The notes beneath the pieces were generated by a model that saw only the letters and a program-made list of their open reading frames with translations, was not told where the DNA came from and searched no databases. From a phage, in sequence record PZ179880.1: 64,000 nt of DNA; one strand, written 5' to 3'. The position numbers and the translations under genes were made by a program. Shown here one piece after another: positions 10,836 to 16,418 of the stretch (position 1 is the stretch's first letter; each line of letters starts with the position of its first letter).

Positions 10836-12005
10836 TTAAAAATATTTTTTAAAACTCATCATAACTTTATCATCAACATCATTATCAATCTGTGCTACAA
10901 GGTAAGATGACAGTTCTACTTCTTGTGGTGCGGATTGAACATTATCAGAATTAAGGTATTCACGAATCCAAGGATATGGATGTTTAACCGGAGCATCGGT
11001 AATTGGGCATGGAAGACCACACTGTTTCATACGAGATACAGTTAAGTAATCAATAAAGCTCCACATGCTATTTGTATTTAATCCAGGAACATCACCATCT
11101 TTAAATAAATGAACCGCCCAGTCTTTTTCTTGGCGGTTAACTTCCATGAAAATATCAACTGCTTCTTGTTCACACTCTTGAGCAATTTTAACCCATTCAT
11201 CACCATCAGTGCCAAGTTGAAGTTGACGAATAATATATTGGGTGCCTTTAAGGTGAAGTTGCTCATCACGAGCAATGAACTTCATAATCTTGGCATTACC
11301 TTCCATGATTTCCATGTTCTTATGGAAGTTAAAGGTACATGCGAAAGATACATAAAAACGAATAGCTTCCAATGCGTTGATTACGTGCAGGCAGAGGTAA
11401 AGAGATTTCATTAGTGCTCGTTTAGTACATTCAACAACTTTGCCTAACTCTTCTTTACGAAATCCTTCTGATAAAATTCCTTCATAATCTTCAACCGCAT
11501 TCTGATATTCACGAGTCTTAACTAGAACGTCATCATAATAACGACCAATAGATTCAGCACGTTTCATGATAGCTTCATCTAGTACAATCTCATCAAATAC
11601 CTTCGATGGATCAGTATAAAGATTTCGCATGATATGGGTATATGAACGGCTATGAATAGTTTCACTAAAAGTCCATGTAGCAACCCATGTATCAAGACTT
11701 GGGTCTGAAATTAATGACATAAGTACTGCAGACGGTGCACGACCCTGAATGCTATCTAGAAGTGATTGATACTTCAGGTTGTTAGTAAAAATATCTTGCT
11801 GATACTGAGGAAGCTTGTTAAATTGTGCAGCATCCATCATTAAGTTTACTTCTTCAGGACGCCAGAAAAATGACAACTGCTTTTCGGTTAAATCTTCAAA
11901 AACTTTATGACGTTGAATATCATAACGCGCAATACCAAGACCTGAACCGAAGAACATAGGTTCTTTTAAAACATCAACTGGGTTTGTATTAAAAACTGTA
12001 GACAT
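10836..12005 (-). CDS. nrdB: ribonucleotide reductase small subunit
   Basis: 389 aa from MSTVFNTNP; di-iron/tyrosyl radical family; contiguous (no intron). Confidence 0.9.
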   Translation of the reverse strand: MSTVFNTNPVDVLKEPMFFGSGLGIARYDIQRHKVFEDLTEKQLSFFWRPEEVNLMMDAAQFNKLPQYQQDIFTNNLKYQSLLDSIQGRAPSAVLMSLISDPSLDTWVATWTFSETIHSRSYTHIMRNLYTDPSKVFDEIVLDEAIMKRAESIGRYYDDVLVKTREYQNAVEDYEGILSEGFRKEELGKVVECTKRALMKSLYLCLHVINALEAIRFYVSFACTFNFHKNMEIMEGNAKIMKFIARDEQLHLKGTQYIIRQLQLGTDGDEWVKIAQECEQEAVDIFMEVNRQEKDWAVHLFKDGDVPGLNTNSMWSFIDYLTVSRMKQCGLPCPITDAPVKHPYPWIREYLNSDNVQSAPQEVELSSYLVAQIDNDVDDKVMMSFKKYF

Positions 12006-12736
12006 TAATTTTTCCTCTTTAAAATTCTGCCGTGTTTCCAACCTGGCGGTATAATATCATCTTTACCTATAAGCGTGCATTCACTTCCATTATTAATCCA
12101 TTTCTTACCGCGGATTCCTTTATAATCTCTTGGTTTTATTTTGTCAAACTTTGCATCAAGTTGATATGACCATCTAAATCCATAAGCATATTGAAATTTA
12201 CCCTCGGCACAATATTTGATATTTGACCCGTTTCCATTAACTGACCGGGACGCTGCCGCAATAGAGTGAAAGGTTTCTATGAAATCCCCATCTAATGAGA
12301 ATTTATGTATTTCTATAGATGGGCATGCATATCTATTCACGTTTGATACATGCTGTTTAGTTTCGCTTTTATGGTGCTTGCCTAACATTCCTTTAGGATG
12401 AGGATTATTTTTCCAATATTTCTTAAAGAACTCAGAATTAGCTTTAGCAAATAATTTTCTGTGTAAGCTGTACAATCTGTTATTAATTCTATTGCCAGCT
12501 TTATCTGTTGCCATTAACGTTAACGCAGAGGCAAGCCCAAAATGGCCTTCATTTATCTTACATAGTAGTAAATGAGCTATAAAATGTTCTCTGGCTGTTA
12601 ATTCAACTAAATTTTCCTTATCATCAGAACCTCCCATACATCTAGGGATTATATGATGTGTCTCTTTATATTCTGATAAAGATTCCCGAGCCTGAGCTCG
12701 GGAAATTAGGTCATTATAGATTTTTTGATAATTCAT
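12005..12736 (-). CDS. HNH homing endonuclease with NUMOD-type DNA-binding modules (MobE-like position)
   Basis: 243 aa; HNH core HHIIPRCMGGSDDKENLVELTAREHFIAH; NUMOD3-like GMLGKHHKSETK; free-standing between nrdA and nrdB. Confidence 0.7.
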   Translation of the reverse strand: MNYQKIYNDLISRAQARESLSEYKETHHIIPRCMGGSDDKENLVELTAREHFIAHLLLCKINEGHFGLASALTLMATDKAGNRINNRLYSLHRKLFAKANSEFFKKYWKNNPHPKGMLGKHHKSETKQHVSNVNRYACPSIEIHKFSLDGDFIETFHSIAAASRSVNGNGSNIKYCAEGKFQYAYGFRWSYQLDAKFDKIKPRDYKGIRGKKWINNGSECTLIGKDDIIPPGWKHGRILKRKN

Positions 12737-15000
12737 TACAATTTACACGCTGCGCAATCATCGGCTTTTGGAGTTTCTATTTCGTAATCATCAGTACCGG
12801 AACCATCACGAGTATTATGATAATAGAAGTTTTTAATGCCATAATACCATCCGTATAGCATGTCATCAATCATTACAGACATTGGAACCTTTCCTTTTGG
12901 AAAAATCTGCGGGTCATAATATGTATTCGCTGAAGCTGATTGACATACCCATTTCAGCATAATAGCTACCTGCGTAAGATAAGGTTTATTGCCTTTCTTA
13001 GCTAATTTCCACGTATAATCATAGAGGTCTATGTTATGCTCAATATTGGGCACGACTTGATTAAAGGAACCCTCTTTTGATTCTTTAACAGAGACTGGTC
13101 CACGTGGAGGCTCGATACCGTTTGTACTGTTAGAAACTTGGGAAGATGACTCACATGGCATAAGTGCTGATAATGTGCTATTACGGATGCCAAAGAGCTT
13201 AAGGTCTTCCCGCAGCGACGACCAGTCACAAACGTATTTTGGAGCTGCGATTTGGTCAATCTTTTTATTGTACCAGTCGATAGGTAATTCGCCTCGAGAC
13301 CAACGAGTGTCTGAATAATATTCGCAAGGTCCTTTTTCTTTGGCGAGCTTAATGGATGCTTTAATGAGCCCATACTGTAATCTCTCAAATAGTTCATGTG
13401 TTAAATCGTTAGCATCTTCATAAGAAGCAAAGTTACTTGCCAGCCAAGCTGCATAGTTCGTAACACCAACACCGAGATTACGACGCTTTTTAGCTTTTAA
13501 AGCTTCTGGAACCGGATAATCTTGATAGTCTAACAGGTTATCAAGTGCACGTACTTGAACTTCTGCTAATTCATTAATTTTATCTTGGTCTTGCCAATCG
13601 AAGTTATCCAACACAAATGCAGATAACGTGCACAATCCAATTTCAGCATCAGGACTATTCACATCATTTGTTGGAATAGCAATTTCACAACACAAGTTAC
13701 TCTGGCGAATAGGCGCCTTTTCACGAATAAACGGAGTATAGTTATTCGTATTATCAATGAACTGCACATAAATCCTTGCTGTTCCTGATCGTTCAGTCAT
13801 GAGTAATTCAAATAGTTCACGGGCTTTAATACGCTTTTTGCGAATATTAGGGTCTTTTTCTGCTGCTTCGTATAATTCGCAGAAACGGTCTTGGTCTTTA
13901 AAATAAGAATAATAAAGCTCACCACCCATTTCATGCGGACTGAACAAAGTAATGTAATCGTTCTTTCCAAAACGTTCCATCATCAAATCATTCAACTGGA
14001 CGCCATAATCCATATGACGGATACGGTTTTCTTCTACACCTTTGTTATTTTTCAAAACGAGAAGATTTTCAACTTCCAAATGCCAAATAGGATAATAAGC
14101 AGTAGCAGCGCCGCCACGAATTCCGCCCTGTGAACATGATTTAACAGCAGTCTGAAAATGTTTCCAAAAAGGAATAACACCAGTATGACGCACTTCACCC
14201 ATGCCAATCTTAGAACCTTCGGCACGAATCATACCAACGTTAATACCAATTCCAGCACGTTTGGAGATATATTCAACAATTGAAGCAGAAGCCTTATTAA
14301 TAGACTTTAATGAATCACCTGCCTCAATAACAACGCATGAACTAAACTGCCGAGTTGGAGTACGGCAACCAGCCATAATAGGAGTTGGTAATGAAATCTG
14401 TCGAGTAGATACTGCTTCATAAAAACGAATAACATGTTTTAATCTATCAACAGGTTCATCTTGATGCAATGCCATTCCAATAGTCATAAATGCAAACTGA
14501 GGAGTTTCATAAATTTGACCAGTGGTTTTATCTTTAACGAGATATTTTTCTTTTAATTGCATCGCCCCGGAATAAGTAAATTCCATATCCCGCTCATGCT
14601 TAATTTTTGATTCTAAAAATGTAATTTCTTCTGCTGAATATTTTGACAACAATTCAGGGTCATATTTACCTTCATTTACGCAGTAAGAAATATGGTCAAT
14701 AAATGAACGTGGTTCATACTGCCCATAAACATGCTTACGAAGAGCGAACATTAAACAGCGCGCAGCTACGTATTGATAATCAGGCTCTTCAACTGAAATA
14801 GAATTCGCAGCAGCCTTAATGACAATAGTCTGAATGTCATCAGTTGTCATTCCATCACGGAGATATGATTTAATATTTTCATATAATTCATAAGGATCTA
14901 CAGATGTTCCTTCAGCTGCCCAAGATAAAACTTTAATAATTTTTTGCGGGTCAAAGCTCTGAGAAACACCACTACTTTTGATAACATTAATTAATTGCAT
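12736..15000 (-). CDS. nrdA: ribonucleotide reductase large subunit
   Basis: 754 aa; ATP-cone N-terminus and class I RNR catalytic motifs. Confidence 0.95.
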   Translation of the reverse strand: MQLINVIKSSGVSQSFDPQKIIKVLSWAAEGTSVDPYELYENIKSYLRDGMTTDDIQTIVIKAAANSISVEEPDYQYVAARCLMFALRKHVYGQYEPRSFIDHISYCVNEGKYDPELLSKYSAEEITFLESKIKHERDMEFTYSGAMQLKEKYLVKDKTTGQIYETPQFAFMTIGMALHQDEPVDRLKHVIRFYEAVSTRQISLPTPIMAGCRTPTRQFSSCVVIEAGDSLKSINKASASIVEYISKRAGIGINVGMIRAEGSKIGMGEVRHTGVIPFWKHFQTAVKSCSQGGIRGGAATAYYPIWHLEVENLLVLKNNKGVEENRIRHMDYGVQLNDLMMERFGKNDYITLFSPHEMGGELYYSYFKDQDRFCELYEAAEKDPNIRKKRIKARELFELLMTERSGTARIYVQFIDNTNNYTPFIREKAPIRQSNLCCEIAIPTNDVNSPDAEIGLCTLSAFVLDNFDWQDQDKINELAEVQVRALDNLLDYQDYPVPEALKAKKRRNLGVGVTNYAAWLASNFASYEDANDLTHELFERLQYGLIKASIKLAKEKGPCEYYSDTRWSRGELPIDWYNKKIDQIAAPKYVCDWSSLREDLKLFGIRNSTLSALMPCESSSQVSNSTNGIEPPRGPVSVKESKEGSFNQVVPNIEHNIDLYDYTWKLAKKGNKPYLTQVAIMLKWVCQSASANTYYDPQIFPKGKVPMSVMIDDMLYGWYYGIKNFYYHNTRDGSGTDDYEIETPKADDCAACKL

Positions 15001-15557: not shown

Positions 15558-16418
15558 TTACACCGCCATTTTTCCTTTAATAGGAGGGTGTGATTCGTAA
15601 CCTTTAAGAACGAAATCTTTAGGCCTGAGTTTAAGAACATATTCCAATTGTTCTTTAGTAGAAAGATAGCGGAATTTATAAGGCAATCCGCCTATTACCA
15701 GTTCACAAAGCTCTTTAGGTTCACGACGCAAAATTTCTTTACATTGTTCTACGTGATTCATATAGATATGAGTATTACCGCCAGAAAATATCAAATCTCC
15801 TGGAATAAGATTACACATCTTAGCTACAATATGAACTAATGCAGCATATGATGCAATATTAAATGGAAGACCGAGGAAAACATCTACCGAACGTTGATAC
15901 CACTGCAAATCCAAATAGCCATTACGCACATTAAACTGATAGAACATATGACAAGGCGGTAATGCCATATATTTAAGTTCAGCTGGATTCCACGCCGACA
16001 CAATTTGTCGCCTATCATTTGGTAGTTTTTTAATACGATCAATAACTTCTACAATTTGGTCTACACCGCCAAAATCACGCCATTGTTTTCCGTAAATTGG
16101 ACCAAGTTCACCACTATGATATCCTAAATCTTTTGCTTGGTTTTCGTAATTTTCATCCCAGACTGTTTTGCCTTGAATTAATGAATCGTGTTGAATTAAT
16201 CGTAAATCATTGACATTTGTGCTTCCTGATAAAAACCAAAGTAGCTCAGCAATGCAAGCTTTCCAGGCGAGCTTCTTAGTTGTTACTGCAGGAAAACCTT
16301 TACTTAAATCCCAGCGCAATTTAGTACCGAACAAAGCAATTGTTCCTGTGCCTGTTCGGTCATCAGTTTCATAGCCATTTTCCAGGATATCTTTAATTAA
16401 AAATTGGTATTGTTTCAT
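15558..16418 (-). CDS. td: thymidylate synthase
   Basis: 286 aa, contiguous (no intron); ThyA active-site region ALPPCH. Confidence 0.95.
   Translation of the reverse strand: MKQYQFLIKDILENGYETDDRTGTGTIALFGTKLRWDLSKGFPAVTTKKLAWKACIAELLWFLSGSTNVNDLRLIQHDSLIQGKTVWDENYENQAKDLGYHSGELGPIYGKQWRDFGGVDQIVEVIDRIKKLPNDRRQIVSAWNPAELKYMALPPCHMFYQFNVRNGYLDLQWYQRSVDVFLGLPFNIASYAALVHIVAKMCNLIPGDLIFSGGNTHIYMNHVEQCKEILRREPKELCELVIGGLPYKFRYLSTKEQLEYVLKLRPKDFVLKGYESHPPIKGKMAV

Follow-up and report, generated by a model that had tools for sequence, protein, structure and literature searches.

The DNA analyzed here is a stretch of 64,000 nucleotides from a phage (sequence record PZ179880.1), called the window below, and it comes from a Tequatrovirus, i.e., a T4-like phage. 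The gene between nrdA and nrdB in this window is very probably the RB3-type allele of mobE, a free-standing, selfish homing-endonuclease gene of the HNH type. It is a real gene under selection, and its product is predicted to be a nuclease by every available sequence test. This supports the original prediction, made from the letters alone, that a free-standing HNH endonuclease gene occupies the MobE position between nrdA and nrdB; the 243-aa open reading frame (ORF) had also been delimited correctly, and its strand, which had not been stated, is the minus strand. It should be mentioned that the gene is already known. Dozens of sequenced Tequatrovirus genomes carry it under the label mobE or "homing endonuclease", and T4 has served to elucidate the biology of the family. 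The identification is correct and contains nothing surprising to a specialist. The present analysis adds modest refinements concerning the structure of the alleles, the split mobE/nrdB.1 of T4, and the compensatory conservation of the terminator.

The nearest genomes to the window are those of P922 and SF2-1, with about 97% identity over 25 kb. The mobE gene is identical at the nucleotide level in Shigella phage SF2-1 (XPO97928.1) and phage P922 (WYD66348.1), where it is annotated as "homing endonuclease". The window protein shows 96.7% identity to that of RB3 (AIT72962.1, "mobE / nrdB.2", KM606994), both being 243 aa long, and a 243-aa protein is annotated as "mobE, putative homing endonuclease (nrdB.2)" in RB3, RB5, RB6, RB7, and RB10. 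It matches PHROG 655 "homing endonuclease" (E = 5.5e-58) and has 840 homologues in the databases. The Tequatrovirus loci compared in this study were 10 of the RB3 type, three of the T4 type, and nine empty sites. All 10 RB3-type alleles examined were intact, and the ratio of nonsynonymous to synonymous substitution rates (dN/dS) was 0.08-0.25, about 0.1. Taken with the PHROG match and the number of homologues, this ratio means that the ORF is not due to chance. Eighty-two phage records cover at least 80% of the C-terminal half in one piece.

The family alignment comprised 28 homologues with 36-98% identity. H27, H28, P31, C33, G36, N42, E50, H51, and H55 are invariant in it. The HNH core had been predicted to be canonical (HHIIPRCMGGSDDKENLVELTAREHFIAH, residues 27-55); the catalytic residues are indeed undisturbed, and T4 MobE has an identical core. 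Disruption of the HNH residues was looked for in this alignment and was not found, nor was there homology to a non-nuclease family. The proposed NUMOD1-like module was recognized by Pfam as NUMOD1, with a score above the cut-off (25.9 vs 22.8 bits); the peptides quoted for it, FHSIAAASRSV and GFRWSY, correspond to residues 156-166 and 186-191, respectively. The proposed NUMOD3-like module (GMLGKHHKSETKQ, residues 116-128) held in part. This segment lines up with clear "GKxHSEETKxxIS" motifs in the homologues, yet it has no Pfam NUMOD3 match, and it is therefore best called degenerate. The WINNG...IPxGW motif near the C-terminus is conserved across the family alignment, and the extension that contains it might provide extra contacts with DNA.

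A sequence search of the PDB gave weak HNH-motif matches only, to a group II intron maturase (E = 0.029) and McrA. Because this search was uninformative, a structure model was used. In the AlphaFold model of the window protein, for which the mean predicted local distance difference test (pLDDT) score was 86, a strand-strand-helix arrangement is formed around the HNH residues. Then come long helices, a small domain that covers NUMOD1 and is well defined, and a tail rich in beta structure; residues 124-137 are helical, and residues 211-215 and 220-224 form strands. The closest structural match of the model is I-HmuI (PDB 1U3E). The window protein has the intact catalytic His/Asn/His residues of the I-HmuI type (H28, N42, H51, and H55, all invariant) and the modular fold in which an HNH domain is combined with a NUMOD-type DNA-binding domain. 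As the sequence and the model show, an N-terminal beta-beta-alpha-metal nuclease of the HNH type is joined via the long helices to a DNA-binding half made of the NUMOD3-like helix, NUMOD1, and the beta-rich tail, in an extended I-HmuI-type layout.

The gene also has the features of the mobE locus family. It is inserted at the nrdA-nrdB junction in place of a short spacer, its N-terminal HNH module is common to the window protein and T4 MobE, and it begins at a UAAUG overlap without its own ribosome-binding site, with a hairpin about 27-30 nt after the AUG. On every testable feature, the gene thus belongs both to this locus family and to the I-HmuI-type HNH homing endonucleases.

The empty-site phages have a conserved nrdA-nrdB gap of 54 nt, stop codon included. 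When the 10 RB3-type loci are compared with the nine empty sites, fixed differences in the nrdA tail are found at positions -25, -22, -15, -12, -10, and -1; those at -15, -12, -10, and -1 are common to all mobE carriers of both types. NrdA ends with ...CAACKL in the carriers and ...CSSCKL in the empty-site phages. The first ~165 nt of mobE are also common to all carriers. On the other side, nt 4-6 are the sole fixed difference between RB3-type and empty sites within nrdB nt 1-450. The same-species pair PYps55T (with mobE) and CHD16UKE1 (without mobE) shows the same pattern on a finer scale: there are nine single-nucleotide polymorphisms (SNPs) in the last 90 nt of nrdA, three in nrdB nt 4-6, and nearly none farther out. 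The SNP comparison was made on GenBank phage records; a scan of IMG/VR contigs with NrdB gave 34 loci, few of them close.

By analogy with the family, the enzyme would nick or cut the nrdA/nrdB region of a relative that lacks mobE in a mixed infection. Repair by recombination with the mobE-bearing genome would then transfer mobE along with ~25-90 nt from the end of nrdA and with nrdB nt 4-6. Site-specific cleavage and super-Mendelian inheritance are supported indirectly, by a presence/absence polymorphism at one exact site and by its sharp boundaries.

The C-terminal half is at least 95% identical in 55 phage records, and about 500 records are at least 90% identical over a 3-kb nrdB-mobE-nrdA query, both counts including RefSeq/GenBank duplicates. 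The family is found at the same junction in Gaprivervirus, Roskildevirus, Schizotequatrovirus, and S16-like and CF1-like phages, with 46-73% identity and with the overlapping stop/start design mostly kept. Decayed copies were also seen. A contig from IMG/VR that matches Salmonella phage STML-198 has a frameshifted RB3-type copy at the nrdA-nrdB junction, which is probably inactive. In the genome of Shigella phage CT01 (OK018184), mobE codon 45 is fused to nrdB codon 11, out of frame with nrdB, by a deletion across a short GTTGA repeat; nrdA is annotated in pieces in this record, and the deletion reflects either natural loss of mobE together with the start of nrdB or a faulty assembly. The presence and absence of the gene, its copies across genera, and its decayed copies correspond to the invasion, persistence, and decay of a homing element. 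In T4-like contigs of IMG/VR, the nrdA-nrdB gap is 41-59 nt (empty), 109-508 nt, or ~1600 nt with unrelated inserts. This wide variation in size fits the nrdA-nrdB region as an insertion hotspot.

The prediction that the ORF is longer than MobE was borne out. The annotated MobE of T4 (NP_049844) has 141 aa, vs 243 aa here, and is followed in the same gap by nrdB.1 (83 aa). The window gene appears long because T4 has a split variant of reduced length. In G2540, slur02, HY03, and many database entries, the T4-type gene is intact and encodes 213 aa. The final 78 residues of its product show 98.7% identity to T4 NrdB.1, which itself is recognized by Pfam as NUMOD3. This means that T4 mobE and nrdB.1 (NC_000866, 139716-140416) together correspond to the 213-aa allele; the middle section has diverged in T4, with a change of reading frame. 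The T4 gene that has been studied looks like a split or mosaic copy of the 213-aa gene.

The RB3 type and the T4 type share only their beginning. Residues 1-56 of the window protein are nearly identical to those of T4 MobE, but beyond about residue 57-60 it shows no detectable similarity to this protein or to the product of the intact 213-aa allele of the T4 type. The RB3-type protein consists of the HNH domain, the NUMOD3-like helix, NUMOD1, and the beta-rich tail, whereas the 213-aa T4-type protein consists of the HNH domain, NUMOD3 repeats, and a zinc-finger-like CPHC...C tail. A C-terminal half homologous to T4 MobE/NrdB.1, with these repeats and this tail, is absent from the window protein, and the window gene is not a full-length orthologue of the studied T4 enzyme. 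Its C-terminal half (residues 57-243) is nearer to the "MobB-like" proteins of S16-like phages and to T4 MobB than to T4 MobE: the identity is 58-59% to the "MobB-like" Salmonella S16-like and Melville proteins, and 29.6% to T4 MobB over residues 68-191. The slot between nrdA and nrdB thus holds at least three forms, namely the RB3 type, the T4 type, and the split T4 type of T4 itself. Some Vibrio phage homologues of the RB3 type have an extra C-terminal "CPHCxKxTNKGNALRWHYDNCK" tail. This is the same zinc-finger-like module that ends T4 NrdB.1 and the 213-aa T4-type MobE, which indicates that DNA-binding modules have been shuffled among these genes. Since the name mobE spans at least two alleles with unrelated DNA-binding halves, the nick site of T4 should not be assigned to RB3-type genes on the strength of the name.

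The nick site of T4 MobE was mapped in nrdB nt 122-126 on the non-coding strand (PMC2790892). Loss of the HNH motif from T4 mobE abolished the nick and lowered its inheritance, and flanking DNA was co-converted (PMC2790892). In all three T4-type carriers, nrdB differs by 16-21 fixed substitutions within nt 39-141, a stretch that includes this site. The window nrdB is exactly that of T2, the susceptible phage, over nt 91-160, where T4, G2540, and slur02 differ, and the protective substitutions of the T4-type hosts around nt 114-131 are missing from it. Together with the unrelated DNA-binding half, the lack of protective changes suggests either that the target of the RB3 type is other than that of T4 or that cutting of its own genome is tolerated. 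The cleavage site of the RB3-type allele may therefore differ from the T4 MobE site. The junction is the simplest candidate target, because all fixed differences lie there. The comparison of flanking sequences with endonuclease-less relatives, which had been proposed as a way to the cleavage site, defined the limits of the cassette and did not separate the possible cut sites: nrdB nt 7-130 hardly differ between donors and recipients, and the co-conversion tracts therefore fail to distinguish a cut at the junction from one at nt 122-126. In the empty-site Escherichia phage ES12, a patch at nrdB nt 96-134 resembles the "immunity" substitutions of the T4 type. The patch may have been left by a T4-type mobE that has since been lost, or it may be a resistance allele gained by recombination.

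A tentative reading of these data is that the two genes called mobE are functionally different homing endonucleases, with a shared catalytic and regulatory cassette (nrdA tail, HNH core, and terminator), unrelated DNA-binding halves, and an RB3-type site that differs from that of T4 MobE. If this is true, the RB3-type site would most simply be the nrdA-nrdB junction, which is destroyed by the insertion of the gene itself. RB3-type genomes, which keep a T2-type nrdB, would then be open to attack by T4-type MobE, and both alleles would compete for one slot through their common homology. Alternatively, the RB3-type enzyme might be functionally the same as T4 MobE, nicking the non-coding strand of nrdB at nt 122-126 and reaching the same target with another C-terminal half. 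This would fit the common insertion site, nrdA tail, and terminator and the identical HNH module. The published target-site logo (PMC2790892) also combines RB3 mobE with T4 mobE, although this pooling suggests that a distinction between RB3 and T4 targets may not have been drawn there. We consider functional identity rather unlikely. The similarity ends at residue ~60, NUMOD1 in the window protein stands against the NUMOD3 repeats and the CPHC tail in the 213-aa allele, and substitutions at the nick site are found in 3/3 T4-type but 0/10 RB3-type carriers.

The expression signals at the 5' end of mobE are those of T4. A terminator scan found a hairpin with a 9-bp stem and a UCAG loop (12704..12683), followed by a U-rich tail. 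Its folding energy is -18.3 kcal/mol (z = -3.7), and the stem-loop is identical to the T4 mobE hairpin. In T4, mobE lacks a promoter and is transcribed together with nrdA (Wilson and Edgell 2009, PMC2790892), about 30-50% of transcripts end at the hairpin, which lies 27 nt after the AUG (PMC2790892), and the UAAUG overlap with nrdA has been read as translational coupling (PMC2988022). By analogy with this identical 5' module, the window mobE would have no promoter or ribosome-binding site of its own and would be carried on nrdA transcripts; its translation would occur by termination-reinitiation at the UAAUG overlap, and the weak terminator would hold its level low. Expression and attenuation are thus presumed to be as in T4.

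The hairpin is at the same place in other phages with a different stem. YenM_P8 and RZ have the stem CCCGGG/CCCGGG, whereas the CF1-like and S16-like contigs and DK-13 have GGAGAGGC/GCCUCUCC with UUU after it. The hairpin is weak in Erwinia phage IT22, and it was looked for and found to be absent in the mobE homologue of Vibrio phage PC-Liy1. Comparison of these sequences indicates that the hairpin is kept across genera by compensatory changes, which supports the view that expression of the nuclease must be throttled.

The 3' end of mobE would supply the ribosome-binding site of nrdB and perhaps a middle promoter. The GAGG and TAATG region there is invariant in the 10 RB3-type alleles, as is the candidate promoter. 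In T4, a strict MotA-type match is found in the equivalent region of its own allele (cf. PMC2790892); the strict MotA-box pattern gave no match in the 3' part of the window mobE. A scan for sigma-70-type promoters gave seven sites vs 5.0 +/- 2.5 expected by chance, and it carries no weight because the count is no higher than chance. One such sequence, TTGTAA-17-TATAAT (10/12; 12713-12741, minus strand), straddles the nrdA stop and the mobE start, and a transcript starting from it would begin inside mobE, just before the terminator hairpin. In the empty-site phages, TATAAT is located just after the nrdA stop.

Several points weigh against the identification as an active homing endonuclease. The Pfam HNH score is 20.8 bits, 0.6 bits short of the cut-off of 21.4, and Pfam NUMOD3 (PF07460) gave no match at E <= 10, even when the C-terminal fragment was searched in isolation. 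The candidate middle promoter fits a loosened pattern only, and no protective polymorphism at the T4 MobE nick site is seen in the RB3-type carriers. The nuclease activity of the window allele is a prediction from its sequence, and the evidence for T4 MobE itself is in vivo only, an indirect role not being excluded by its authors (PMC2790892). The gene might be a domesticated or inactive passenger, no longer mobile and kept for the ribosome-binding site of nrdB, perhaps its promoter, and the terminator that sets the nrdA:nrdB ratio. Both ends of the gene overlap host genes, the Shine-Dalgarno sequence of nrdB lies inside the final codons of mobE, and other genera have retained the hairpin; according to Wilson and Edgell, embedding of this kind creates selection against deletion. 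However, the purifying selection acts over the whole protein, catalytic residues included, which regulatory DNA does not need. Active homing and loss would produce just such a patchy presence, sharply bounded, among phages that are very closely related, and the empty-site phages express nrdB without mobE. A passenger role is therefore considered improbable.

It is barely conceivable that the ORF is a decaying pseudogene or an annotation artefact, i.e., a chance ORF in an AT-rich gap. Decay does occur elsewhere, as in the STML-198-like frameshift, the CT01 deletion derivative, and the split gene of T4, but the window ORF is intact, full-length, and identical to that of two other isolates. For the window copy, this explanation was rejected on the basis of the intact records (82 with an unbroken C-terminal half), the invariant residues, and the low dN/dS. 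A free-standing homing-endonuclease gene of the RB3 type remains the reading that we prefer.

The coordinates of the features are given in Table 1. As predicted, the mobE stop overlaps the nrdB start (TAATG, 12003..12007); the second TAATG, which joins nrdA and mobE, had gone unmentioned. The prediction that td and nrdB are intron-less agrees with their uninterrupted ORFs (td, 15558..16418, 286 aa; nrdB, 388 aa) and with a scan of the whole Rfam, in which no family, group I introns included, reached the threshold anywhere in the 64-kb window; the empty scan means that there is no group I intron. No paralogues of mobE were found by a search of the window. The GC content of mobE (0.346) is not anomalous compared with that of the window (0.354). 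In pairwise nrdB alignments among close Tequatrovirus genomes, many break at about nt 495-499 (window ~11506-11511), so that a mosaic boundary or a short indel may lie at about nt 495-500. The nrdB gene of Sf23 is 12 nt shorter.

Table 1. Features of the nrdB-mobE-nrdA region in the window.
Feature	Coordinates	Strand	Basis
mobE, RB3-type allele	12005..12736	-	732 nt, 243-aa ORF, ATG start
HNH catalytic core, residues 27-55, HHIIPRC...REHFIAH	12572..12658	-	Pfam, identity with T4, model compared with I-HmuI
Degenerate NUMOD3-like helix, residues 116-128	12353..12391	-	alignment to homologue motifs
NUMOD1 DNA-binding domain, residues 147-177	12206..12298	-	
C-terminal extension, residues 192-243, WINNG...IPxGW motif and beta strands	12008..12163	-	family alignment, model
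Intragenic intrinsic-terminator hairpin and U-rich tail, nt 33-54 of mobE	12673..12704	-	terminator scan, fold
TAATG, nrdA stop/mobE start overlap, no Shine-Dalgarno sequence upstream	12734..12738	-	sequence
nrdB ribosome-binding site GAGG within final mobE codons, and TAATG of mobE stop/nrdB start	12003..12017	-	reads AAAGAGGAAAAATTAATG
Candidate MotA-type middle promoter for nrdB, CGCTTA-N13-TATTAT, 70 nt upstream of nrdB ATG	12051..12075	-	loosened pattern
Last 25 nt of nrdA, mobE-linked haplotype	12739..12763	-	fixed differences from empty-site phages
nrdB codon 2, TCT (Ser2), AGC in empty-site phages	12000..12002	-	locus comparison
nrdB nt 122-126, counterpart of T4 MobE nick site, T2 (susceptible) sequence	11880..11884	-	locus comparison
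nrdA, upstream host gene, 754 aa	12736..15000	-	ORF and annotation in matching records
nrdB, downstream host gene, 388 aa from ATG at 12005, intron-less	10836..12005	-	ORF and record annotation

Among the known systems, RB3 mobE has the same size, position, and TAATG overlaps as the window gene, with no difference of substance; RB3 carries the I-TevIII intron in nrdB, whereas the window phage does not. Sandegren et al. reportedly described mobE in RB2, RB3, RB15, and LZ7, together with the Hef enzyme, in 2005. T4 MobE, the only MobE studied experimentally, is encoded in the same nrdA-nrdB gap and has in common with the window gene the last ~15 nt of nrdA, the UAAUG coupling, and the internal terminator. 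The "MobB-like" genes of S16-like phages are also located between nrdA and nrdB, unlike T4 mobB, which is at another locus, in the alpha-gt region (PMC2988022). The same article reports Hef of phage U5 in the mobE position and as cutting nrdB (PMC2988022); since it is described as a "unique endonuclease", Hef is not expected to be the same gene as that of the window. I-HmuI is an intron-encoded HNH nicking homing endonuclease of Bacillus phage SPO1 with 174 aa, whereas the window gene is free-standing. The two proteins show 12% sequence identity, and the window protein has about 50 extra residues at its C-terminus.

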